25,209 nt of DNA from a virus, in the IMG/VR virus record IMGVR_UViG_2922727739_000003, positions 1 to 25,209 of that record. One strand, given 5' to 3'. The notes below the pieces were generated by a model. The model was not told the origin of the DNA and searched no databases. It worked only from the letters and a program-made list of their open reading frames with translations. The position numbers and the translations under genes are program-made. Positions 1 to 15,663 of this stretch are shown piece by piece (position 1 is the stretch's first letter; each line of letters opens with the position of its first letter).

Positions 1-1287
1 TTAACTTTCTGTGAACTCACTGAGAGCATGACCATACTTTTCGTATTCGCCTCTTTGAATTTCTACCTCATAAATGACATCATTGCCATCATACTCTGTC
101 AGCAGTACATCTCCAATTCGATAAAGCACAGATGTTAAATCCCCACGTTCCGCAGGAATACGGAATCTCAGTGTGTCACCGCTCAGATGCTCCTGAACCA
201 GTTCGCGAATGCGTAGCAAATCCGCTTCATCAAATGCACTGATTTTCAAATAGCCTTCCCCGGAAGGAAGCATTTCCAATTGTACAGGGGTGCAAGCATC
301 TTTTTTGTTAAACAATACAATCTGAGGCTTGTCCGCAGCCCCAAGCTGTTGCAGAATTGACTCTACAACTTTCATTTGTTCGTCACGCATGTCTGAAGAG
401 GCGTCCACGACATGTAAAATGAGATGGGCCTCATTGGCCTCTTCCAAAGTGGCCCGGAAAGAGGCTACCAAATCATGAGGCAGATTTTGAATAAATCCTA
501 CTGTATCTGTGAGAATAACTTCTTTGCCACTCGGCAATTCCATTGTTCTGGAGGTAGGATCGAGCGTTGCAAACAGTTGGTTCTCAATATATACATCGGC
601 AGCTGTCAGTTGCTTCAACAGTGTTGATTTCCCGGCATTCGTATAGCCAACAAGTGCCACCTGAACGATGCCAGCCTTTTGTCTGCGCTCCCTGTGTAAA
701 TACCGATGACGCGTCACTTCCTCAAGTTGGCGTTTCAGATCACTAATTCGGTCACGAATGTGACGACGGTCCGTCTCGAGCTTGCTTTCACCAGGACCAC
801 GTGTTCCGATTCCGCCACCGAGCCGTGAAAGGTTTTTACCGTGTCCAGACAGTCGAGGCAGTAAGTATGACAACTGCGCCAGTTCAACCTGGATAATACC
901 TTCCCGTGTTTTTGCACGCTGAGCAAATATGTCCAGAATTAACTGTGTTCGGTCAATTATTTTGAGATCCAGGCTCTCTTCCAGATTTCGTACTTGAGCT
1001 CCCGAGAGCTCCTGATCAAAAATAGCTGTATTCGCTCCCAATTCTTCAGCAACTGCACGCAATTCATCTACTTTTCCTTTGCCAATAAACCATTTCGAGT
1101 CTTTGGATTCCCTATTTTGTGTGAGGACGCTCAGGACTTCAACTCCCGCTGTTTCAGCCAGCTTCACCAGTTCTTCCAGCGAATATTCCGTATTGATGCC
1201 AGATCGTTTGACTTCATCCGTAATTAAACTGACCAGTACCGCCTTATCCTGCATTTCGGTTTGTGTATCATGAGTGGAGTTCGCCAT
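1..1287 (-). CDS. hflX: Ribosome-splitting GTPase HflX (host)
   Basis: G1 GYTNAGKS, G2 LFATLDPT, G3 DTVGF, G4 NKKD; glycine-rich GGGIGTRGPGE loop; lies downstream of spoVK, the usual Bacillales order spoVK-hflX. Confidence 0.97.
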   Translation of the reverse strand: MANSTHDTQTEMQDKAVLVSLITDEVKRSGINTEYSLEELVKLAETAGVEVLSVLTQNRESKDSKWFIGKGKVDELRAVAEELGANTAIFDQELSGAQVRNLEESLDLKIIDRTQLILDIFAQRAKTREGIIQVELAQLSYLLPRLSGHGKNLSRLGGGIGTRGPGESKLETDRRHIRDRISDLKRQLEEVTRHRYLHRERRQKAGIVQVALVGYTNAGKSTLLKQLTAADVYIENQLFATLDPTSRTMELPSGKEVILTDTVGFIQNLPHDLVASFRATLEEANEAHLILHVVDASSDMRDEQMKVVESILQQLGAADKPQIVLFNKKDACTPVQLEMLPSGEGYLKISAFDEADLLRIRELVQEHLSGDTLRFRIPAERGDLTSVLYRIGDVLLTEYDGNDVIYEVEIQRGEYEKYGHALSEFTES

Positions 1288-1399
1288 ATTGTTTGCTCCT
1301 TTATTTTCATGTCAACTCTCGAACAGAAACCGACCTGATGTCAGGCCGGCCCTCGTTCGATGTCATACAATTCGATATGATTCAGATTCCTATTATCGC

Positions 1400-1807
1400 C
1401 TATCTTTTGTCCATTTTCAAATCCTCTGGTCGCAACGTCATCAACTCCTGCTTACCGGGTTGCCCGCTCCTGTACTGATTAAGCAGCCTGACAGCTTGGT
1501 GTCGAATCGCTTTTTCAATCACATTACGAACATAACGTGCATTACTAAATGCATGGAGACTGTCATTTCGCTCATTTAGCAAATGCTCTTTCATTTTGAG
1601 TATAGACTGAGGCATGAGAATATAATCCCTTTCCTTAGCCATCAATTCCGAAATTTGAATGAGCTGATCCACAGTGTAGTCAGGAAAATCCAACTGGATT
1701 GGAAAACGAGAAGGAAGACCAGGATTTGTCCGTAAAAAAAAGTCCATTTCTCCCGAATACCCTGCGAGGATCAAAATAAATTGATTTTTTTGGTCTTCCA
1801 TGGCCTT
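1400..1807 (-). pseudogene. spoVK: 3' fragment of host stage V sporulation AAA+ ATPase SpoVK, split by prophage insertion
   Basis: Frame reads (K A) MEDQKNQFILILAGY...NPGLPSRFP...FSNARYVRN, the C-terminal part of a CbxX/CfxQ-family SpoVK. Walker A and B are missing. Similarity stops upstream of codon AAG at 1805-1807, where the sequence turns AT-rich. Confidence 0.92.
1506..1549. repeat. 44-bp tract identical to phage 9075-9118
   Basis: Direct comparison of the two spoVK copies. Confidence 0.95.
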
Positions 1808-3464
1808 GGCGACTGTTTGAATTTATATGTTTATTATCGGATTCTTTCCCTCCCCAGTTTACAAAGTCTAAATGTAGATAAATGTTTACCTTATTGTCTT
1901 CGCCAAGCACAACTCTTTTGATGAATAACCGAGTCACTTTACGCTTTGCTTCCATATCTATATGATCATTGTCGAGCAAATATTTAAATGATCTTAATGA
2001 TTTTTGCACCATTTCGATATGATTTTGCTTATATAGTACAGATGATAAACTCTGCTCTATAACTCGTAACTCCTCTTTAATATCTTTAATAAGATTATCA
2101 ACCGCCGACACCTTATCTTCTAAATCCTTCATACTTTTAATAATTCCAGCCGCATACATCTCAGTATATCGTTCACGAGATGATTCTTTTTCTTGTAAGG
2201 ACTTTTCTAATTTCTGTTTTTGACCAATCAATTCATCTGAATTAGATCTTTCCGATTGCTGTTTAACTAAACGCTCAAAAAAGTCTGACGGATGCTCTAT
2301 TATCTTCTTGACGTATTCCCAAACAATACCGTCTACATAATCAACTCTCCAATTCCGTCCTTTACAAATTGGGTTAGATTCTCCAGTTCCCACCTCGTAG
2401 GACTTTTTTGTTTTATGTTGACATACGTAATACTTTAACAGTCCATTCTTAGTTTTTGTAGTGACACCAGATGATACTGCTGCACCACAACGACCACATC
2501 GACAAATTCCTTGTAAAAGATAGTCTTCGGATGGTCTACCAGACTTGTTTTTGTTTAATTCTTTAAGCCTTTTTTGAATAACACGATAAGTCTCCATATC
2601 AATGTAAGCAGGTACAGATATATGTCTCCATTCTTCTCTTGGTTGTGGAATTTGCTTTTTTGTCCCATCAGCTTCTGTTACTACTTTGGTTTTACCATAA
2701 TAGAAATTGCCTGTGTAGGTTTCATTTTTAAATATTCTACTTATCGTAACTTGATACCATCTATCTTTTTTAGGGGCTGGCACGTTACGCAACGACAACT
2801 CTTCTGCTATTCTAGAGCAGCTATAATCTTTATGTAAAAGCATATCGACCATCTTCAGATAAATTTCTTTTTCTTCTAAGTTTTCGACTAATGTGTCTAG
2901 TTCGGTATCATAAGTATAACCATAAATTCTATTAAGACCCGGAATAAGGCCCTTTTTAACTTTAGTAATTCTCCCGCGCTTAGTATCTGCTAAAATTTTA
3001 GCTTTATTGTATTCAGCAATACTGCCTTGAATGTTAAAGTTTAACATTGACTCGGGACTCGATTTATCAAACTCAAACTCCACGAACCAGAAGTCTTTTC
3101 CCATACCCCAGATACGATTTGACAGTTGTGTTTGCAGATGAAGGAAACGACTCATTCTGTTTGGGTGTAGGAATATTACGTGATCACCAATACCATATTC
3201 AAGTAAGAACAAAATGTAATTAATCATCGGGCGATTAGGATTATCTCCACTCTCACCATCTTCTATTAGAACGACTACTTCATCTTCTTTTATACCTTTT
3301 TGTCTTCCTAGATCCATACATCTCTCAATTTGAGACTCTATTGAATAATTGTCAACTTGTCCGTCAGTTGAAACGCGCGCATAAATAAGAGCCTTGATCT
3401 TGGTGACCAAGGCTTCAAGCTCAGCTTTTGTAAATTTTTCTGATCCTGTTAAAGTCCTGAGCAT
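1680..3464 (-). CDS. Large serine recombinase (phage integrase)
   Basis: Catalytic YARVST (Ser nucleophile), RMSR, YGY recombinase domain, Zn ribbon CRCGRCG...YYVC...C, coiled coil; RBS GAGGA upstream; last ~41 codons lie in host spoVK DNA. Confidence 0.95.
   Translation of the reverse strand: MLRTLTGSEKFTKAELEALVTKIKALIYARVSTDGQVDNYSIESQIERCMDLGRQKGIKEDEVVVLIEDGESGDNPNRPMINYILFLLEYGIGDHVIFLHPNRMSRFLHLQTQLSNRIWGMGKDFWFVEFEFDKSSPESMLNFNIQGSIAEYNKAKILADTKRGRITKVKKGLIPGLNRIYGYTYDTELDTLVENLEEKEIYLKMVDMLLHKDYSCSRIAEELSLRNVPAPKKDRWYQVTISRIFKNETYTGNFYYGKTKVVTEADGTKKQIPQPREEWRHISVPAYIDMETYRVIQKRLKELNKNKSGRPSEDYLLQGICRCGRCGAAVSSGVTTKTKNGLLKYYVCQHKTKKSYEVGTGESNPICKGRNWRVDYVDGIVWEYVKKIIEHPSDFFERLVKQQSERSNSDELIGQKQKLEKSLQEKESSRERYTEMYAAGIIKSMKDLEDKVSAVDNLIKDIKEELRVIEQSLSSVLYKQNHIEMVQKSLRSFKYLLDNDHIDMEAKRKVTRLFIKRVVLGEDNKVNIYLHLDFVNWGGKESDNKHINSNSRQGHGRPKKSIYFDPRRVFGRNGLFFTDKSWSSFSFSNPVGFS
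1785..1835. other. Prophage attachment junction (attL or attR); crossover at about 1806-1810
   Basis: - strand reads ...ataaattcaaacagtcgcc|aaggccATGgaagac. The spoVK frame is TVA-KAMED where ...LV-KxMED is expected (the phage paralog reads DCLVKVMED). It adjoins a serine recombinase and a composition shift. The exact core dinucleotide cannot be fixed without the other end. Confidence 0.8.
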
Positions 3465-3510
3465 AAAGTCCCTCCTATTTTATTAATTTCATTATTTTTA
3501 TGTATATACA

Positions 3511-3663
3511 TTATATATTATTTGGCACTAAATGAGAATATTTTTTCATAGTATTCTCCAGCCATATTGAAAATTCTTTCTCTATTTCACTTATTTGTTT
3601 AGCATTTTCCTCGTCAACAACATGTATTACAACCTCAAAACTATTTATATTACTTCTTTTCAA
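3511..3663 (-). CDS. 50-aa protein immediately upstream of the integrase; candidate recombination directionality factor
   Basis: Not in ORF track. Strong RBS AAGGAGGG, TTG start, MKRSNINSFEVVIHVVDEENAKQISEIEKEFSIWLENTMKKYSHLVPNNI*. Function inferred from position only. Confidence 0.65.
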   Translation of the reverse strand: MKRSNINSFEVVIHVVDEENAKQISEIEKEFSIWLENTMKKYSHLVPNNI

Positions 3664-3722
3664 TTTGTTCCCTCCTTTCTATTTGTATTGAAAGAAGGCA
3701 TAAAAATAGTTGTCTGCACTCT

Positions 3723-3740
3723 GTAAAATACTACTTTTAT
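3723..3740. repeat. Dispersed dyad RTAAAA-N6-TTTTAY, copy 1
   Basis: gtaaaa tactac ttttat, 7 nt from the recU-like stop codon. Confidence 0.7.
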
Positions 3741-3747
3741 CATGAAA

Positions 3748-4296
3748 TTATTTGCTAAAACCATATGTATTTATTGCATTTTTTACAAAATCGTTTAAGT
3801 GGTAATGCCACTTGCTTCTTTTTTTAAATCCATTAATTTCTAGCCCTATTTCTTCACAAATACCTATTGGTATACTACTCTTATTGACTCTGCTCTTATA
3901 TGAGTGACTAAGCTGATTTTGAGCAATAAATTGATACTTAATAAAATCCTTGATATGTACAAAGAAAACTTTGTTATCTGGCTCTCGAAAGTTTATGATA
4001 AAACCACTAATAACATTGTCATACTCACTAGCCTCTTTTAATTTGTCAATCTGATGCTGTTTAATTACACTTTCATCAAAGCTGACCGATTTTTGTTTTG
4101 TGGACTTAAGTTCCAAAGTAAAAAGATATTTCTCAGAAAACATCATACAGTCATAATCATTTTTCGTGACTCTAATTCTGTTTCTTAGTTCCGCTGGAAT
4201 AAAAGTATCCTTAATTCTAGTGAAAAATATCTTCTGAGTTGATCCAGCAGACGCTTGAAAATTTCCCTCAAAGAGCTTGCCTTCATTCTTACTCAT
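3748..4296 (-). CDS. recU: RecU-like Holliday junction resolvase (PD-(D/E)xK nuclease)
   Basis: N-terminal GKLFE, DYD...LELKSTKQKS, IKQHQIDKL motifs typical of RecU. Confidence 0.8.
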   Translation of the reverse strand: MSKNEGKLFEGNFQASAGSTQKIFFTRIKDTFIPAELRNRIRVTKNDYDCMMFSEKYLFTLELKSTKQKSVSFDESVIKQHQIDKLKEASEYDNVISGFIINFREPDNKVFFVHIKDFIKYQFIAQNQLSHSYKSRVNKSSIPIGICEEIGLEINGFKKRSKWHYHLNDFVKNAINTYGFSK

Positions 4297-4469
4297 AGCA
4301 AACTCTCCATCATCTTCAATCGATCATCTAAATAATCTGTTTCTAATTTTACTAGTTCCTCATACTTATCTTCCTTTATAAATCCATATTTATTGTACAT
4401 CTCAAGTCTTTTTAAAGTATGTATTTTCAATTCTTTAACAAGTTGAATATTATGACCAACTAAATTCAA
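4293..4469 (-). CDS. Hypothetical protein (58 aa)
   Basis: Not in ORF track. TTG start after RBS GAGGA; ATGA overlap with the recU-like start (translational coupling). Confidence 0.6.
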   Translation of the reverse strand: MNLVGHNIQLVKELKIHTLKRLEMYNKYGFIKEDKYEELVKLETDYLDDRLKMMESLL

Positions 4470-4470
4470 A

Positions 4471-4698
4471 TTACCATTCCTCTCCTACAATAATTCTTTT
4501 TGCTCCATTAGCTTTCTTTAAACAGTCATAGTCGTCGTGAACGCTCAGAACGTCGAACAAGATCAATATTTCCTCTCCAACTAAAATATCTTCATTACAC
4601 CCTGCACAAGTTGAAAACATACTCACCTCCTCATCTTGTGCATCCGGGAATCTATACTCATGGTATGAAGTTTGAAATCTATCAAAGTTAATTGACAT
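4471..4698 (-). CDS. Small putative Zn-binding protein
   Basis: CAGC...HDDYDC motif; start moved to ATG at 4698 after RBS GAGGA. Confidence 0.65.
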   Translation of the reverse strand: MSINFDRFQTSYHEYRFPDAQDEEVSMFSTCAGCNEDILVGEEILILFDVLSVHDDYDCLKKANGAKRIIVGEEW

Positions 4699-4813
4699 TA
4701 ACTTGTTCCTCAAGAAGCTTGTTGAGAACGACAGAAACGATCTCCTTATACTCTTTCTCGCTAATCTTCCGTTTCAAAATACTTTCAATCTTATGTTTGC
4801 TCATCTTGTCCAT
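4688..4813 (-). CDS. Hypothetical protein (41 aa)
   Basis: Not in ORF track. RBS AAGGAG, MDKMSKHKIESILKRKISEKEY... Confidence 0.55.
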   Translation of the reverse strand: MDKMSKHKIESILKRKISEKEYKEIVSVVLNKLLEEQVNVN

Positions 4814-4827
4814 TAAGTCATTCTCCT

Positions 4828-7800
4828 TTAGCTTTTTCGCTCTGTAATTACTTTAACTGTGCCATCTTCTCTGATTTCATCAATAAACATAGTGGTATGT
4901 TTAACTCTAGAATCTTTATAGTTGTAAGGTCTAAACTGTGCACCTCTACGATACCCAAACAGAATCAACTTATTACCACGTGTAAACCATGATTTTTCAA
5001 TAATTTCTTTAGTACCATCTTGTTTTGGTTTTGATATTTGCTTATTGTAATGTGCAAAAGCACCATCGTAATATTTTGCGGTAACTACCCCTGTTGTCGT
5101 AAGAATTGTTACAGTATTTTTATTTTTATCTTTATCTAAAACAGTGCCAGCTATGAAGTCTAATTTGAATTTGGGTCTAGAAGATCCATTTCTATATTGA
5201 ATCATTTCAACAACTACTGGTTCTTCTGGTAATTCAAAAAAGTTAACAATTCCATATTTAAATGTGTCAACGTTCTGGAGTTCATGTTCTGTGTAGTAAA
5301 ATGATAAAGAGTCCATTTCCCACTTGCTCAATGTCCCAGATGCTAAACTGTTCCACTCATTCTGATACAACTTCGAGTTTAAATGAGATAAAGTACTGTC
5401 CTCTGACAACCAATTTTTTATGCCTTCCATTTTTTTATCGTATTCTTTTTTGAATGTTCGTTCTGCTATGATTGGGAAATTATTATGATAATCCTTTATA
5501 GCTTCTCCCGAGAAGTGTTCATAATAGAAGGGAGTGGAAATTTTATCGAGCAAGTAAAGTTTCTCTTTGCCTTCTTTACTGTAAACATTTTTGATAACGT
5601 ACTTTCTGAAGTTGAACAGTCTCTTATATTGGGTCATTTCTTCTGGAATCAGATTGTTTTCAATAAGAGCATTAAAGTTCTGCATTGTAACTTTTTGTTT
5701 GGGTGTAAAAATCTTATGTATAAATTGCTTCATAATTTCTAAGCGGTTCCCAAAAGATTCAAAACAACCAGCTTTAATCAACTGAATTACTTGGGACTTC
5801 TTAATAATTGAGGTACTAAACATCCTTTCAATAAAATCATCAAAAGATTTATATGGTCTATGTTTAATGATGTTTTGAACTACATCATCGCCAATGCCGT
5901 TAATTCCTTTTAACCCAAAGACAATTTGATTAAGTTCTGTATCGGGAAAAAAACCATAATCAGCTTTGCTTATATCAGGAAGACCTATTTTAACACCGCG
6001 ACTCTGCATATTTCCAATCGCAGAAGCAATTTTCCCATAGTTTGTAGATTGTGTTTTGGTGTCATCATCTTCATCGTGAATAGAGGCAGAGTTTACAGTT
6101 AAACAAGCTGTTCTCCAGTAAATAGGGTCATAAATATTATTTAAGTTGGCTTCCTGTAACGCAATAATGGAATAAGCCAATGTATGTAACACAGAAAATG
6201 AATATCCCAACTGTCTAACTATTTCTTTATTCCACACATAGTCGAGGATTTCTTTTCTATTGTTTAATTCCAACCCCTTTGTATAGAACTTAATTTTAAT
6301 GTCTTCGATTTCATTTGCTTTTTTCTTTGCTATGACTTTTCTGAGTTTATTTGCATCTTGGATTGTAAAACCTGCTACCTTTTTGTCCATTGAAAGAAGC
6401 ATAATAGACTCTTGTGTATCTGCCACTCCATTTAGTGCAAGCAAATGTTTTTTCATTGTCTCTATTTCGTCTTCATTTAAGTTGTTATCATGTAATTCCC
6501 TGTACCATTCATTAATGTCATTTTTGAATCTGATGAAGCTGTCAATGGGTGTTTCATTATTGTGATCCCCCATTAATCGCATTAGGGAATTTGCGGCGGC
6601 TAGTTCAATTAGGTTAGATGGCTTTGTTCTCTTAACAGTTTGTACACCAATTTCTGTAGAAAACTGAAAAAGATCGGTTATGCTATCTGATCCAATTAGG
6701 TCATATATTTCTTGACTCTTAATGTCAATAACATTGGGATGTAAATACTTGTTATATGTTTTGCGAATTGTGCCTTGCCACTCCATTAGATTTTCTTTAA
6801 TTAGAAAATCCAATGCTACACGAATCTTATCCAATCCTTCAATTGTCAACAAGTCAAATTTCATATTCGATACGGCTTCACAATCTTCTAGACTAAGTTG
6901 CGTTACATGAGTACCATTAGGAGCAGTCATCATGGCATTAGTTTTATAATATTCTTCATTAAAAACTATAACGCCACTAGCATGGATACTTCTTTTGTTT
7001 ACCAATCCTTCAATTTTCATTGCCACATTGAGCCAATTATCAAATTTATTTATTTCAGTAACAAATTCTTTAACTGGTTTGCGTTCTTTCTCTTCATTCC
7101 CATTAACACAGTCTGATAACGTCCAACTACTACCTCTCTCAAAAGGAATTAGTCCAGATACGTACATAGCAGTATCATTGTCGATACCCAAACCTCTTGC
7201 TGCTGTTTGTACTGCTGATTTTGACGCTTCTGTACCAAACGTACACACCTGTAGAACTTGGTTTTCGCCAAAGTACTTCTTTAGTTGCTTGAAGATCTGA
7301 TTTCGTTTTGCGGCTTCAGTGTCGATATCAATATCTGGGAACTCGGGTCTCTCTGCCGTCAAATGTCTCCAATGCGGCATTTCGATGCCATACTCTAAAG
7401 GATTGACTTGAGTAATTCCCAAGAGGAAGCAAATTAAGTACCCAGCAGAAGAGCCACGAGATGGGCCAACCAAACTATTCCCACAGTCATCATCCCAAAT
7501 AACATTTACAATTTCTCGAACTGTAATGTAGTAACTTGCTACTGATTGATTCATTTTCTCAGATATCTTCCATAGTTCGCCCAATTCAGTGTTAATTCTA
7601 GCGGCTACTTCATGCAATTTTTCTTTCGAGTAGGTATTGTATGGAAGATACTCTCTAAATCCGTCTTCTATTAATTTTACTATGTATCTATCTTGGCTAT
7701 TATTCGAGTGAGCCATTTTATCTATATATTCATACTGAGAATAAATTGAACGAAATAATCCACTAATTTCGAATTTTGGAAGATCGATTTTAGGGATAAT

Positions 7801-8769
7801 CGTTGGTTTTAAAATAGTATAATCTTTAATCTTGTTACCGACTTCTATTGTATTGTTTAATGCTTTCATTATCACATCGTGACTTAGATAACTTAAGCGA
7901 TCATTTATCTCTTCGTGATTTTGTACAAAAGTTGCCTCATAAAATGAATCAACTTCCCGTTCTCCTTCTTTTGCATTTAGGAAAGCTTTATGTACAATAC
8001 GATCTTCTGGACGAAGATAATGACTATCTGTTGTTACTATGTACTTAAGTTCAAACTTATCAGCCAATAAAAGCAATTGCTTGTTACAATAAATCTGTTC
8101 CTCGCTATATGCAGGTTGCAGTTCTAAATAAAAATCTTCTTTACCAAATACTTCGATACACCAATTTGTAAAATCACATACTTTTTTATAGCTCTTCTTA
8201 GCTTCTTCTCTGTTATCGTTGTCTAAGTGTGATTTCATCTCCAGCAGATATATACAATGTGGTGAACCCAAACAGGCAGAAGAAGCAATTAAATGACCCG
8301 GATTATCTTTGATAACTGATCGTAAAAAGCTGCGTTCTGTTGGTGTTCTTAACATTGGGCCTGTGAAAAATGAATCAGTCCAAGCCTTTGAACTCATATA
8401 GCGAAGCTGTTCATGACCAATTTCATCTTTAGCCAATAACAAAAAATGTGGAAACTTAGTAACTCCAGACTTATAATTGTCTCTTACTTCTACAAGGCTC
8501 TCAACCAAATAAATTTCATTGCCCAAAATTAGTTTAAAATCTTTATGTATCTTGCCTTCTTGCTTTAGTTTTTCTGTTGCCTGAATTGCTTTAACATGAG
8601 CAGAGATGGATTCATGATCTGTTATAGCAACTCCCTTATGTCCCATATCATAAGCTGTTTGTATCAGCTCTTCCACTCGATTTGTTGTATCTCTAAGCCT
8701 TAAGTTTGAACCCCTATCGACATGATTATGGAGCAAAATCGAATTACACTTTTCACACAAATTAATCAA
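4828..8769 (-). CDS. dnaE: Phage family C DNA polymerase (DNA Pol III alpha, DnaE type, like SPbeta YorL)
   Basis: PHP domain HNH/ITDH/GNEIY/DSHY, GPSRGSSAG, catalytic PDIDID, SIHASG, KFDLL, GYSFS, HhH GINGIG, C-terminal OB-like region; no intein seen. Confidence 0.95.
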   Translation of the reverse strand: MINLCEKCNSILLHNHVDRGSNLRLRDTTNRVEELIQTAYDMGHKGVAITDHESISAHVKAIQATEKLKQEGKIHKDFKLILGNEIYLVESLVEVRDNYKSGVTKFPHFLLLAKDEIGHEQLRYMSSKAWTDSFFTGPMLRTPTERSFLRSVIKDNPGHLIASSACLGSPHCIYLLEMKSHLDNDNREEAKKSYKKVCDFTNWCIEVFGKEDFYLELQPAYSEEQIYCNKQLLLLADKFELKYIVTTDSHYLRPEDRIVHKAFLNAKEGEREVDSFYEATFVQNHEEINDRLSYLSHDVIMKALNNTIEVGNKIKDYTILKPTIIPKIDLPKFEISGLFRSIYSQYEYIDKMAHSNNSQDRYIVKLIEDGFREYLPYNTYSKEKLHEVAARINTELGELWKISEKMNQSVASYYITVREIVNVIWDDDCGNSLVGPSRGSSAGYLICFLLGITQVNPLEYGIEMPHWRHLTAERPEFPDIDIDTEAAKRNQIFKQLKKYFGENQVLQVCTFGTEASKSAVQTAARGLGIDNDTAMYVSGLIPFERGSSWTLSDCVNGNEEKERKPVKEFVTEINKFDNWLNVAMKIEGLVNKRSIHASGVIVFNEEYYKTNAMMTAPNGTHVTQLSLEDCEAVSNMKFDLLTIEGLDKIRVALDFLIKENLMEWQGTIRKTYNKYLHPNVIDIKSQEIYDLIGSDSITDLFQFSTEIGVQTVKRTKPSNLIELAAANSLMRLMGDHNNETPIDSFIRFKNDINEWYRELHDNNLNEDEIETMKKHLLALNGVADTQESIMLLSMDKKVAGFTIQDANKLRKVIAKKKANEIEDIKIKFYTKGLELNNRKEILDYVWNKEIVRQLGYSFSVLHTLAYSIIALQEANLNNIYDPIYWRTACLTVNSASIHDEDDDTKTQSTNYGKIASAIGNMQSRGVKIGLPDISKADYGFFPDTELNQIVFGLKGINGIGDDVVQNIIKHRPYKSFDDFIERMFSTSIIKKSQVIQLIKAGCFESFGNRLEIMKQFIHKIFTPKQKVTMQNFNALIENNLIPEEMTQYKRLFNFRKYVIKNVYSKEGKEKLYLLDKISTPFYYEHFSGEAIKDYHNNFPIIAERTFKKEYDKKMEGIKNWLSEDSTLSHLNSKLYQNEWNSLASGTLSKWEMDSLSFYYTEHELQNVDTFKYGIVNFFELPEEPVVVEMIQYRNGSSRPKFKLDFIAGTVLDKDKNKNTVTILTTTGVVTAKYYDGAFAHYNKQISKPKQDGTKEIIEKSWFTRGNKLILFGYRRGAQFRPYNYKDSRVKHTTMFIDEIREDGTVKVITERKS

Positions 8770-8802
8770 TACCCCCCTTCAAACTGCGTTTTCTTTCTTC
8801 CT

Positions 8803-8820
8803 ATAAAATATTGATTTTAA
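8803..8820. repeat. Dispersed dyad RTAAAA-N6-TTTTAY, copy 2
   Basis: ataaaa tattga ttttaa, intergenic, upstream of the dnaE RBS. Confidence 0.65.
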
Positions 8821-8864
8821 TCAGATACAATAACATGTTACATCTCTCTCACCCCCTTTAAATC

Positions 8865-8926
8865 TTCATAAAGAACAATCAATGAACTACTATTTACGTA
8901 GAATAAGCATGATTGTTCTTTATGAA
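8865..8926. terminator. Long inverted repeat (perfect 17-bp arms, 28-nt loop) between phage spoVK and dnaE
   Basis: ttcataaagaacaatca (8865-8881) and tgattgttctttatgaa (8910-8926); no clear U-tract, so a terminator role is uncertain. Confidence 0.55.
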
Positions 8927-8941
8927 CTGATAAAATTTAAA

Positions 8942-9916
8942 CTACGGTAATATGATAGATTCGTTTTTATTTATTTCAATATTTGAATTTGATATATCTC
9001 GTGGCAAAATATCCATTAAGTTTTGTTTTGAGATCTTCACACGTCTACTCATTATTCTAACAGCTTGGTGCCTGATCGCTTTTTCAATCACATTACGAAC
9101 ATAACGTGCATTACTAAAATTACTTCTTGAGTCTTTCTCAATCTGAATTATTTCTCTAAGCTTTATAAGTGCATCAGAGGTAATGTTATAGTCTTTTTCA
9201 TATGCCATCTTTACTGCAATTAACATTAGCTCATCTGTTGTGTAATCCTGAAAATCTATTTGTATTGGAAACCGTGATGGAAGACCTGTATTTGTTCTAA
9301 GGAACATCCCCATCTCATCTGGATAGCCTGCAAGGATAATTATTAAATCATCGCTTCTATCCTCCATGACTTTTACAAGACAGTCTATAGCTTCCTTTCC
9401 AAAATCTTTATCTCCTCCTCTAGCCAAACTGTAGGCTTCATCAATAAAAAGAATACCTCCCATAGCCTTCTTAACAAGATCTCGTGTTTTTTGCGCGGTG
9501 TGACCAATGTATTCCCCAACTAAGTCTGCTCGTTCCACTTCAATTAGATGACCTTTACTAAGGATACCCATTCTGTTTAGCAATTTAGAAGCTATTCTTG
9601 CCACTGTCGTCTTCCCTGTACCGGGATTCCCTTTGAATATCATATGGTATACCTGATTACTACTTTTAAGACCTTCTTCACTTCTAAGTTTTTGTACCTG
9701 TATCAATGCATAAATTTCGTACACAAGTTCTTTTACCTTTTCAAGTCCAATCATATCGTCTAAATCTTTAAATATGTCTGCTGCGGATTCGTAATGATTA
9801 CTGGTTAATGGAACTTCTTCGTTTTGCTCGGATATTGCTTCATAAGCCTCTTGACTTTTAAAGACAACATTAATTCTTGATTCATTAACAGTAATCCTTC
9901 TGGAGTTTTCATCCAC
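8942..9916 (-). CDS. spoVK: Phage-encoded full-length SpoVK homolog (CbxX/CfxQ AAA+ ATPase)
   Basis: MIGLEKVKE, HMIFKGNPGTGKTT (Walker A), ERADLVGEYIGHTA, ILFIDEAYSL (Walker B), FGKEAID, GLPSRFP, SNARYVRN; probable GTG start at 9916 after RBS GAGGTG. Confidence 0.93.
   Translation of the reverse strand: MDENSRRITVNESRINVVFKSQEAYEAISEQNEEVPLTSNHYESAADIFKDLDDMIGLEKVKELVYEIYALIQVQKLRSEEGLKSSNQVYHMIFKGNPGTGKTTVARIASKLLNRMGILSKGHLIEVERADLVGEYIGHTAQKTRDLVKKAMGGILFIDEAYSLARGGDKDFGKEAIDCLVKVMEDRSDDLIIILAGYPDEMGMFLRTNTGLPSRFPIQIDFQDYTTDELMLIAVKMAYEKDYNITSDALIKLREIIQIEKDSRSNFSNARYVRNVIEKAIRHQAVRIMSRRVKISKQNLMDILPRDISNSNIEINKNESIILP
9075..9118. repeat. 44-bp tract identical to host 1506-1549
   Basis: atcgctttttcaatcacattacgaacataacgtgcattactaaa in both spoVK copies; extends to 56/59 identity (1491-1549 vs 9060-9118). 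Confidence 0.95.
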
Positions 9917-9938
9917 AGTAATCACCTCTCGTTGTGAC

Positions 9939-9968
9939 AGTATATGCCTAATATGGTCTACAACATGC
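9939..9968 (-). promoter_or_regulatory. Putative mother-cell sigmaE (or sigmaK)-type promoter of phage spoVK
   Basis: - strand GCATGTT-N15-CATATACT, close to the B. subtilis sigmaE consensus (-35 .CATAtt, -10 CATAca.T), ending about 10 nt before the RBS. Confidence 0.6.
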
Positions 9969-10064: not shown

Positions 10065-10080
10065 GTAGGCCGAAGCCTAC
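10065..10080 (-). other. cUUCGg tetraloop hairpin at the parR stop codon
   Basis: - strand GTAGGC-TTCG-GCCTAC; no U-tract follows. Confidence 0.5.
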
Positions 10081-10358
10081 TCAATCCCAATGAAATCATC
10101 CAAGCTTTTATCAAGATCTGATTGTGAAAAAGAATCATCTTCTTCTGGCATGTTAGTATCTATGATATCTTCATCATCAATGACAACTTTACTCCCCAAT
10201 ATTTCAGGCTTTCTCCCCTTGTGTCCGAATAAGAACTGTCTTAGTGCTTCTCTTACAATGTCGCTCTCATCATAATATATAGGAAGTTTACTCAGTGCCT
10301 TTTTAAGATCATCGTCTTTTCCGTTTCTGAGTCGTGCGCTGATCAATTTCTTCCCCAT
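10077..10358 (-). CDS. parR: ParR-like ribbon-helix-helix adaptor
   Basis: N-terminal strand ISARLR, helices ...ESDIVREALRQFL, acidic C-terminal tail; overlaps the end of the actin-like gene. Confidence 0.7.
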   Translation of the reverse strand: MGKKLISARLRNGKDDDLKKALSKLPIYYDESDIVREALRQFLFGHKGRKPEILGSKVVIDDEDIIDTNMPEEDDSFSQSDLDKSLDDFIGIE

Positions 10359-11308
10359 GCTCTAACCCCAATTTTTTCATATCCTCTTATTTGTGAAAGT
10401 TGATCGAAAAGTATTTTATTCTTGAAGTTAAGTGTGTTGTAAATCTGATGTGCTGCACCTCCACCAATTAAATAATAATCAAAATCTATATTTAGCCCCT
10501 CAACCTCATTTTGAATTTGAATCGCTAATGATTTAAACGCTTTTGCTATTAATGATTTTATATTTCTCCCTTCGTATATACCGCTTATCACATACTTGTC
10601 CAGTTCATAAATAGCTGGAGTCTTGCCAATAGTATTCATCAGATACTTACGCAATATCTGATAAGCCTTTTCGACCCCCAGCAATAAGCTTGTTGACTCT
10701 TTCATGATTTCTAATTTATCTAATCCTAAAAGGTTTAAAGTGTAGAATCCTAAGTCAATCACCAATATTTTCTTATTTGCAATATGTACTTTTTGAATCT
10801 TCCCTTTATTATCTAGCAGGTAATCCATTGCTATGCCATATCCTTGTGGAACTAGTTTATATTTATTTATTGAGAGCTTAATCTCCGAATAGTTTCCTCT
10901 ACCTTTCTTGAGACTGTAAGTATCTTCTGTATTAATTCTATCCAACATCTTCTCCATATCACTTTTTTGGTTAAAGTAAAATAGTACAGGCAATCCAGTT
11001 ACCATATTAAATGGATTGTTTTTGTTTAAATATCCTAAGCCAGTCTTCAGTAAGACATCGGAAGTCATTGCCTCACTCTTATTATTTTTTAGTGTGAAAT
11101 ATTTAATTTCACTATGCCTTAGTGCAACATTCCCTACGAATAGTTCTTCATTATAGAAAAAATCATTTGGTTTAATGTTTTCTTCGAACATTGGTTGAAC
11201 ATCACCAGAGATTGATGGCTGAAGGTACATTATATTACCTGTCTTTCCCTTGGTGTAGCTAAATCCGAGATCAATCACACTTAAATTTTTCACTACAGTT
11301 AAAGCCAT
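10343..11308 (-). CDS. parM: ParM/StbA-family actin-like ATPase
   Basis: Phosphate-1 IDLGFSYTK, VTGLP, VPQG, phosphate-2 IDLGFYTL, adenosine IGGGA; ATG at 11308 after RBS GGAGGT. Confidence 0.88.
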   Translation of the reverse strand: MALTVVKNLSVIDLGFSYTKGKTGNIMYLQPSISGDVQPMFEENIKPNDFFYNEELFVGNVALRHSEIKYFTLKNNKSEAMTSDVLLKTGLGYLNKNNPFNMVTGLPVLFYFNQKSDMEKMLDRINTEDTYSLKKGRGNYSEIKLSINKYKLVPQGYGIAMDYLLDNKGKIQKVHIANKKILVIDLGFYTLNLLGLDKLEIMKESTSLLLGVEKAYQILRKYLMNTIGKTPAIYELDKYVISGIYEGRNIKSLIAKAFKSLAIQIQNEVEGLNIDFDYYLIGGGAAHQIYNTLNFKNKILFDQLSQIRGYEKIGVRAWGRN

Positions 11309-11320
11309 GATATTACCTCC

Positions 11321-11380
11321 AAATACAATGAGTATCAAAGTATGACAATAGCTCAACAGTGTCGTACAATGTAATACATT
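11321..11380. repeat. Candidate parC centromere: six degenerate ACAAT-like iterons at 10-11 bp spacing
   Basis: acaat 11325, tcaaa 11335, acaat 11345, acagt 11356, acaat 11366, acatt 11376, between the promoter and the parM RBS. Confidence 0.55.
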
Positions 11381-14279: not shown

Positions 14280-14936
14280 TTAACCCACTTCCCAATCAGT
14301 ATATATTGGCGTTAACCTCTTAATCGTTCTTTGAAAAGCTTGATGCACCGCCTGACGTGACACACCAAGTTCAACTCCAATTTCCGATATACTTTTCCCT
14401 TCGAAAAAGTACTTGTCAGCAACGATTCTCTCCTTCTTCGCCAACAATGTATCCATTTGTTCAACTAAATGCGTATTGAACATGTCATCCTCAACTGTCA
14501 GATAATCTAGGTGACTGTCGTTAGGAATAACTTCAGTAAGAAGCTTTTCTTCGTCTGCACCTTTTGATTTATGAAGAGTTTCATTGAAGCTAATGCTGGA
14601 GTACTTGCTTCTGCATTTCATGCTTTTATATCTAGAATGTGCCATAAATTCTTTCCATACCACTTTTCCAAGATATGAAGTAAATTTAATATTCTTGTTC
14701 GTGTCATATGTATTGTAAGCCTTCATTAGTGCTACCATTCCCATACCCAATAAATCATCAAATTCTTCTGGGACTCCTCGTTTAAACCAACGGTCGGCTA
14801 GGCTTTTAACAAAAGGAATATTATTATTTATAATCTTATCCCTAAGTTCTTTATTATTTGTTAGTTTTGCCTCTTTAATTGTCTCCTCATTGTTCAAGCT
14901 AGGATCTCTTTTATAATTTAGACTCTTGTTAATCAT
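14280..14936 (-). CDS. Phage sigma-70-family sigma factor, sporulation-like (SigE/K/F/G-type architecture)
   Basis: Region 2 NNIPFVKSLA...DDLLGMGMVALMKAYNTYD...KFTSY; ISFNETL; region 4 HTH SISEIGVELGVSRQAVHQ; probable ATG at 14936. Confidence 0.85.
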   Translation of the reverse strand: MINKSLNYKRDPSLNNEETIKEAKLTNNKELRDKIINNNIPFVKSLADRWFKRGVPEEFDDLLGMGMVALMKAYNTYDTNKNIKFTSYLGKVVWKEFMAHSRYKSMKCRSKYSSISFNETLHKSKGADEEKLLTEVIPNDSHLDYLTVEDDMFNTHLVEQMDTLLAKKERIVADKYFFEGKSISEIGVELGVSRQAVHQAFQRTIKRLTPIYTDWEVG

Positions 14937-15663
14937 GTATTTCGCCTCTACGCACACAATGTTCTATGTATGTTCCTTCTTCAGTAATTTCAAGCAGGTT
15001 CATTTGTAATCCGTAAGCACAGGCTCCATCGATTCCAATCTTATCACCTTTCAGATTAAACCAAATATCTTCCTTATCATGTAGATGAATACAAGGCGTA
15101 TGACCAAAAACAATCTTCTTCTCTAAGCCAGTCTTATTGTTAAAGAATATATCTCTAATCCAAATGTAGTCACTCTCAGGTTGATTTCGCCAGTCTTCAT
15201 AGAATGGATTGATCCCAGCGTGAACAAATATGTGACTTTCTGTTTCATGATACAAAGGCAGCGACTCTAAGAAATCAATGTGATGCTGATAATGCTTTCT
15301 AATGAACTCTTTTGCTTTTATGTATTGCTCCCATTCGAATCCTTCTTCAAAAAAACTAATCCCACAATAACTCTCTATAGTTTGAAATCCACCATTATTA
15401 AGCCATTGGGCATCCAATTCTTCAATATCATTATTTATTGCAGCCACAAACATATCGTCATGATTTCCCTTAAGAGCAATTACACTCCATTCATTATGAA
15501 GCTGCATTACTTGTTCAACCATCTGTCTACTCTTTTGTCCTCGATCAACATAATCTCCAAGTAGAAAAAGTTTATCCTGAGAAGGATTGTACTTTACCTT
15601 TTTCAATAATGAATTAAATTCGTCATTACATCCATGTGGGTCACTAATTACTAATGTTCGAAT
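14929..15663 (-). CDS. Calcineurin-like metallophosphoesterase (Ser/Thr protein phosphatase family); probable ATT start
   Basis: DPHG (upstream of the track's start), GDYVDRG, GNHD, FVHAG, FGHT, IDG motifs. Confidence 0.9.
   Translation of the reverse strand: MRTLVISDPHGCNDEFNSLLKKVKYNPSQDKLFLLGDYVDRGQKSRQMVEQVMQLHNEWSVIALKGNHDDMFVAAINNDIEELDAQWLNNGGFQTIESYCGISFFEEGFEWEQYIKAKEFIRKHYQHHIDFLESLPLYHETESHIFVHAGINPFYEDWRNQPESDYIWIRDIFFNNKTGLEKKIVFGHTPCIHLHDKEDIWFNLKGDKIGIDGACAYGLQMNLLEITEEGTYIEHCVRRGEIHD

Follow-up and report, generated by a model that had tools for sequence, protein, structure and literature searches.

A Paenibacillus prophage that splits host spoVK carries an intact second spoVK that probably stands in for it

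How can a bacterium sporulate when a prophage has split its spoVK, a gene whose deletion in B. subtilis is reported to cost about 10^6-fold in spores and to be complemented in trans by one ectopic copy (PMC11513918)? The question was raised by a stretch of 25,209 nucleotides (the window), positions 1 to 25,209 of IMG/VR virus record IMGVR_UViG_2922727739_000003. The record is 164,715 bases long and stops within the prophage. Host DNA, with hflX and the 3' part of spoVK, takes up window positions 1–1807; prophage fills the other 163 kb of the record, and the whole prophage is longer than 163 kb. Inside it lies a second, full-length spoVK. A reading made from the letters of the window (the sequence-only reading) had proposed that this copy complements the split gene in trans and that the lysogen could sporulate without developmental excision. 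The prophage does split host spoVK, and in our assessment its intact copy probably supplies the protein in trans at sporulation, which would allow spores to form with the phage still integrated.

The host is assigned to Paenibacillus because its part of the window is 99.7% identical to genome G040, which lies in the genus of a named Paenibacillus genome. We take it to belong to the polymyxa group. Identity to the uninterrupted relative (G040/L059, 99.7% over the host part) stops at 1807, at a Lys codon. The split proposed earlier therefore stood, and the break, placed before at about 1808, was moved by one position. No spoVK 5' half was found in the record, which ends within the prophage. Its predicted presence at the other prophage end was borne out in DNA runs X1 and X2, where it is joined to phage DNA on one contig. 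These runs contain the window at 100% and are possibly its source; no attB joint was listed in them. The integration unit is of Goe14 type, with att at the spoVK Lys codon and attP within the integrase frame. Since that frame crosses the att site, the last ~43 residues of the integrase are encoded by another frame of spoVK. In five complete relatives the far end carries an in-frame integrase C-terminal piece of ~125 aa, which the circular form would carry. The piece was also considered as a separately translated factor and rejected, as no start codon is conserved across the five elements. In three of five lysogens the host 5' half hits a stop right after the att core (L094:7420-8010), and a SpoVK fragment of ~196 aa without the arginine finger could result. 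ATPase-dead SpoVK alleles are reported to be dominant negative in B. subtilis (PMC11513918).

The phage gene was checked for integrity and selection. The sequence-only reading had described an intact paralog about half identical to the host gene, and this proved accurate: the protein matches the host fragment at 54% identity over 135 aa and the complete host-type protein at 56%. Walker A (GNPGTGKT), Walker B (FIDE) and the arginine-finger region are intact in alignment with host types, and the clade signatures given in PMC11513918 (GY sensor-1, here AGY; an Asn ahead of the arginine finger, in TN.GL.SRF; the sensor-2 Arg, in NARY) are present. The TIGR02881 score of 407.7 bits is below the curated cut-off of 422.95, as are those of two host-type Paenibacillus SpoVK (418.4 and 414.0); CbbX (268) and EccA (240) score far lower. 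The ratio of nonsynonymous to synonymous substitution rates (dN/dS, Nei-Gojobori) was 0.04–0.06 in all six pairs with the window copy, up to a dS of 1.4, against 0.01–0.02 among host spoVK genes. In seven close prophages the copy is 90–98% identical, while exchanges have affected dnaE and parM and, at 49% identity in G098, the integrase too. Exact tracts of 44–62 bp are common to the G040-type host gene and four of the seven close phage copies. Two other close copies share a 35-bp tract with other close hosts, and distant hosts share at most 26 bp. The tracts are likely the product of recurrent gene conversion between host and phage spoVK.

The phage gene is preceded by the sigmaE/sigmaK-type promoter motif GCATGTT-N15-CATATACT, exactly as had been described. 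The pattern matches once in the 164,715-base record (0.0–0.3 expected, 10 shuffles), and GCAT..N14-15..CATATACT stands ahead of 16 of 18 phage-type genes, with diverging spacers. CATATACT is also the -10 reported for a putative sigmaK promoter of csfB (PMC4383634). The motif is retained in prophage-free chromosomal copies (G049, G052, G060, G086, G114), which makes a host factor its likely reader; host sigmaE or sigmaK would read it in the mother cell. A phage sigma factor with similarity to the SigE/SigK/SigG families (window 14280–14957) was considered for this role and set aside, because the motif is single in the record and persists in prophage-free chromosomes. Capture of a host promoter along with the gene was rejected, since host-type spoVK genes have a different conserved motif, CTAATA-N14-GAATAC. 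A literature search for the promoter motif gave nothing useful, and a sigma-70/terminator scan was at chance level. A hairpin past the stop codon is likely the 3' boundary of the spoVK transcript. One soil RNA run (X5) yielded a 1115-nt contig over window 8797–9911 with 0 differences; the integrase and dnaE were covered by short pieces only. RNA contigs carry no strand, end or level information, came from one study and were graded weak, and the sparse cover over dnaE was not read as silence.

Whether the copy tracks the integration site was examined in 93 Paenibacillus genomes. Host spoVK is split in five, all of which have a phage-type copy (that of G030 with a stop). An intact host spoVK elsewhere, named by the sequence-only reading as evidence that would speak against it, was found in none of the five. 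In two of the 93 the copy is in a prophage beside a ytfJ fragment and the host gene is intact. Sister prophages were defined by a ParM marker, and duplicates were removed (G005=G038, L214=G001, L220=G014); the capsid was rejected as a marker because it is too mosaic (5/93 genomes). The integration site of L223 is absent from its record. The copy was carried by 10 of 11 ParM-marked sisters at spoVK and by 2 of 10 at other sites (Fisher p 0.002), so that the enrichment suggested for spoVK-site prophages was seen, in elements that are non-independent. With G002, G030 and G450 added, 11 of 14 spoVK-site elements have a copy (p 0.011). No full spoVK was found in 18 Goe14-like records searched (12 of them at least 90% complete). 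Two apparent cases were discarded: G400 is a tandem AAA protein and not a split spoVK, and the genes in L015–L017 are host genes inside virus records.

The phage type has also taken over the host locus. It is the sole spoVK there in five of the 93 Paenibacillus genomes and in at least six more of a family sample, in which 401 genomes were searched and the top matches, plus two genomes with low best scores, were examined; as only 150 matches were listed, family-level counts are lower bounds. A SpoVK tree of 78 proteins was built by a quick method, excluding broken copies and halves. It placed 24 phage-type sequences in one clade (support 98): 12 come from prophages, 11 are sole copies on chromosomes and one is the G408 remnant. 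The chromosomal copies nest within this clade (support 96–98), and in the HflX tree the G060 clade is nested among host-type species. The direction, from phage to host locus, follows from host-gene scars behind the new gene: ~25 bp with the last host-type codons in the G060 clade, and in G019 a decayed host 3' part of ~210 bp (39% amino acid identity). In G408 both host spoVK halves are broken, the integrase is truncated and only the phage copy is intact, and this genome is read as an intermediate of replacement. On prophage decay the phage copy would likely be retained and the host halves lost. spoIVA was intact in all five tested genomes with the phage-type gene only. Nothing speaks more strongly for the phage type being able to do the job of SpoVK than these sole-copy lineages. 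The copy had been called captured, which calls for qualification: it comes from an old phage clade with a promoter motif of its own and is no recent acquisition from this host.

Near this clade several further observations were made. In L088:7558-9628 and L134:6598-8632 the host 5' half and the C-terminal piece of the integrase are immediately followed by phage spoVK, a layout in which the host promoter could read it, and several replaced lineages retain the host-type promoter motif. A second non-host SpoVK clade (L135–L141, seven genomes, low GC3, sole spoVK) is sister to the phage clade; in G163, one of its members, a host-type 3' remnant is kept. No prophage carrying this second type was seen.

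Taken together, purifying selection, the conserved promoter motif, the association with the spoVK site and the lineages with the phage type as only spoVK give good comparative support to a copy that is functional, sporulation-controlled and able to replace the host gene. In the proposed mechanism host spoVK is split by the prophage, whose own spoVK would supply SpoVK in trans during sporulation. The protein would act as an AAA+ activator of MurG, as in B. subtilis. Excision in the mother cell would no longer be needed, because the mother-cell motif precedes spoVK and not the gene in the excision-factor slot.

That slot was compared with SPbeta, where yotM (recU) is followed by sprB and then att, and where the mother-cell promoter mapped for sprB starts 20 nt ahead of the start codon (Abe et al., 2014, PMC4191935). 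A small open reading frame (ORF) occupies the sprB slot in nearly all spoVK-site elements examined. As a SprB homologue it was rejected (profile match probability 0.2%, likeness to SprB not detectable), and tblastn found no match among cultured phages. Upstream of it, window 3725–3738 is a quasi-palindromic A/T box, kept in close relatives and single in the record, possibly an operator. Strict promoter patterns gave no matches, even in presumed positives, and a looser 12-point rule was used (KCAT; 14–16 nt after a 7-mer, CATAYANT), devised after the sequences had been seen. The mapped sprB promoter and Goe14 score 11 of 12, and all 17 Goe14-like elements without a copy score 11–12 (L194 was excluded, its ORF not having been located). 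None of 12 copy-bearing rows (11 distinct) reaches 11 ahead of the sprB-slot ORF (scores 8–10). The window's own ORF, at 9, does not rise above background: 142 of the 167 regions upstream of ORFs in the record have a score of 8–9, and one scores 12. The promoter of the window's phage spoVK scores 12.

In the Goe14-like phages a conserved 48-aa ORF lies between recU and the Goe14-type integrase (L240:1823-1969, Goe14_01730; in L186–L203 just upstream of 10001), with a sigmaE/K-type motif 40–43 nt upstream, inside the recU coding end. Kohm et al. found no excision factor, for which this ORF is a candidate; with its putative promoter it offers a lead in a cultured phage. A broader interpretation, which falls somewhat short of the balance of probability, holds that two designs can be read from sequence. 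Goe14-like phages would exit on time, their mother-cell promoter driving the 48-aa excision factor. The Paenibacillus phages would stay, with such a promoter placed on their own spoVK and host sporulation phage-dependent, and their decay would repeatedly have replaced spoVK, the gene of an essential chaperone of the sporulation checkpoint, across Paenibacillaceae species.

Several observations weigh against a stand-in that spares the phage from excising. The integrase is intact. RNA run X5 holds a 116-nt attB-form contig, in which the host 3' part runs 31 nt into the host 5' part; it may reflect excision or a soil bacterium that is not a lysogen. G150 (a 154-kb prophage) and G450 sit in spoVK without a copy, and the G030 copy has an in-frame stop; G150 and G450 indicate that the site is usable without a copy in this family. 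The sprB-slot scores of these three (10, 8 and 9) are none of them strong, which weakens the promoter contrast. The contrast, drawn by a post hoc rule, coincides with the Bacillus/Paenibacillus divide, the rule misses real Paenibacillus host spoVK promoters (score at most 10), and protein constraint contributes to conservation of the Goe14-like motif, as this lies in the recU coding end. With the close group collapsed and non-ParM cases added, the site association has p 0.035–0.14. The N-terminal domain of phage SpoVK differs from the host type, and in B. subtilis that domain meets MurG. At the ytfJ site, two prophages have retained the copy and its promoter unbroken alongside a whole host gene; dN/dS to their sisters is ~0.04. 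Complementation in trans is judged likely; these ytfJ-site phages and G150, G450 and G030 stand as its counter-examples. The intact integrase, the attB-form contig and the three spoVK-site elements without a working copy, together with the conserved small ORF and possible read-through into it from the spoVK promoter, would suit a prophage that still excises in the mother cell like SPbeta and rebuilds spoVK, its copy only bridging a delay or raising the dose. This is unlikely: no mother-cell motif was found ahead of the small ORF in any of the 12 copy-bearing rows, a strong hairpin lies 3' of phage spoVK, G408 cannot rebuild its host gene yet retains the copy, and a dN/dS of ~0.05 is strong for a redundant gene. 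Sporulation without developmental excision is plausible and gains one sequence argument, in that no mother-cell motif was found at the sprB-slot gene; for this lineage the absence of developmental excision is close to an even call. The question is open to direct test through the promoter contrast at the sprB slot, the RNA contigs and the conversion tract.

The ytfJ-site copies, intact and under selection, would also fit a gene that the phage uses at any site to manipulate sporulation, such as a variant escaping the SpoVID checkpoint and thereby letting infected cells complete their spores, with a merely historical link to the spoVK site. Phage G carries a distant spoVK (42%), and an N-terminal substitution in B. 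subtilis SpoVK is reported to bypass the checkpoint (PMC11513918), the phage N-terminus being distinct. This is very unlikely, given that 8 of 10 sister prophages at other sites have no copy, that L221 is among those without a copy, its parM sharing 94% identity with the parM of two spoVK-site phages that do have one, and that both ytfJ-site copies have a spoVK-site copy as their sister, a pattern that fits integrase swaps. The ytfJ-site branches have 27 amino-acid changes against 13 (p 0.04) and 62 synonymous changes against 58 (Fisher p 0.10); relaxed selection is, at best, weakly indicated. Least credible, and largely refuted, is a phage-type spoVK that is the native allele of some hosts and was picked up and carried without benefit. 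Many host genomes do have this type only, and GC3 in the G060 clade does not fall below the hflX value. On the other side, the chromosomal copies nest among prophage copies, at odds with the HflX tree; remnants of the host type follow them; GC3 is lower than in hflX by 0.07–0.15 in 6 of 11 chromosomal type-A copies and by 0.13 in the G408 remnant; and selection within prophages is strong.

Table 1. Features annotated in the window
Feature	Position	Strand	Basis and remarks
Host hflX	1..1287	-	TIGR03156, 467 bits; GC 0.46 vs ~0.33 in phage; outside prophage
Host spoVK, 3' part	1400..1807	-	TIGR02881 positions 130-261; 99.7% to intact G040 locus
44-bp tract, sensor-2 helix	1506..1549	-	Identical to 9075-9118 of phage copy; 15 identical codons in run, permutation p 1.5e-4
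Large serine integrase, Goe14 type	1680..3464	-	Pfam Resolvase, Recombinase, Zn ribbon; intact
Attachment core at Lys codon	1798..1807	-	2-10 bp common to both prophage ends in 5 relatives; loose end at 1807
50-aa ORF in sprB slot	3511..3663	-	Lies between recU and integrase; directionality-factor candidate by position; no mother-cell motif found ahead of it
RecU-type Holliday junction resolvase, YotM homologue (53%)	3748..4296	-	Sequence similarity
Phage DnaE polymerase	4828..8769	-	Several relatives have other DnaE type there while spoVK stays
17-bp hairpin past spoVK stop	8865..8926	-	z -5.0, 0/200 shuffles; arms covary in relatives
Phage spoVK, full length, 324 aa	8942..9916	-	Start GTG 9916 behind GAGGTG ribosome-binding site; end 8942
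sigmaE/sigmaK-type promoter motif	9939..9968	-	GCATGTT 9968-9962; CATATACT 9946-9939
ParM/ParR-like partition pair	10077..11356	-	Upstream of spoVK; marker of sister prophages

The prophage type was assessed with 17 query proteins (16 from SPbeta, one from Goe14), of which 10 match the record at 21–54% identity, including terminase, YopP/Q/R and YotM. A homologue of YonO RNA polymerase is 51% identical over 842 aa. No SprB match was found in the record among the 17 queries, and SPbeta YopK (AimR) had no tblastn match at E 0.01 in G000, the record without its far end. As 10 of 17 queries match at only 21–54%, genome-wide nucleotide identity of at least 70% to Spbetavirus is unlikely, and the prophage is classed as SPbeta-like without being placed in that genus. 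Short att inverted repeats were uninformative. Integration sites of related elements were also noted. In L086:3729-5654 and L087:3492-5437 sister prophages have a different integrase adjoining a fragment of ytfJ (gerW), another sporulation gene serving as integration site. The integrase of the sister prophage in L224 (18186-18407) abuts a gene that, by eye, we take to be of yifB/comM type. In Alicyclobacillus tolerans (L002, L206, L207) the element that splits spoVK has a related integrase but is ICE- or plasmid-like and not a phage, and the chromosome has a 42% spoVK paralogue elsewhere.

Parts of this system are known: integration at spoVK (Kohm et al., bioRxiv 10.1101/2021.11.22.469490), developmental excision (Abe et al., PMC4191935) and a distant spoVK in phage G (PMC12484599). 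Goe14 and the B. subtilis BS155 prophage likewise integrate at the spoVK Lys codon, with attP within the integrase frame and the C-terminus swapped on integration (Kohm et al.), and their integrase group is related to the one here (42–44% identity for most). The Goe14-like elements differ in lacking a full spoVK (0/18) and in having the mother-cell-type motif before the 48-aa ORF; no sprB equivalent is reported in the article of Kohm et al., the supplements of which could mention a small ORF. B. subtilis SpoVK, an AAA+ MurG activator (Delerue et al., 2024, PMC11513918), has the same clade signatures, single-domain layout and short N-terminal domain. The predicted SpoVK of the window is phage-borne and has distinct N- and C-termini; it and its relatives make natural alleles available for work on the MurG/SpoVID checkpoint. 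The word 'phage' is absent from the main text of PMC11513918. Phage G gp596 (PMC12484599) is a phage-carried sporulation gene as here, 42% identical, with no integration-site tie mentioned in the part of the source consulted, and a survey of phage-borne sporulation genes (PMC10294663) does not have 'spoVK' in its main text.

Target repair carried on attP is seen in the 106-bp glnA duplication (Kohm et al., 10.1101/2021.11.22.469490). It occurs too at tRNA 3' ends, e14/icd and SXT/prfC. In all of these the element offsets its own insertion damage, as it would here, but by an in-place partial duplicate; the gene here is a separate full gene with its own promoter, 7 kb inside the prophage. A literature search, made in full texts with few subscription papers, found no prophage that brings a complete substitute for the gene it interrupts, and no case in which a phage spoVK has taken the place of the host's. 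A sporulation-gene-splitting prophage that likely complements in trans, its gene repeatedly handed to the host, appears to be new. A phage bringing such a substitute would show how a core developmental gene can be exchanged by phages, from full prophage through decayed remnant to a fixed gene with host-gene scars. As in SPbeta in spsM with SprA/SprB (PMC4191935), skin, gin and vfbin (PMC5595907), which are excised developmentally, a large-serine-recombinase element splits a mother-cell gene. The order recU (yotM), small ORF, att site and the homologues of YonO, terminase and YopP/Q/R are common to SPbeta and this prophage. In these elements, the interrupters of sporulation genes described in the papers cited, the gene is rebuilt by mother-cell excision under a sporulation promoter; here the sporulation motif fronts a second whole gene, which, if it does replace the first, would make host sporulation phage-dependent.

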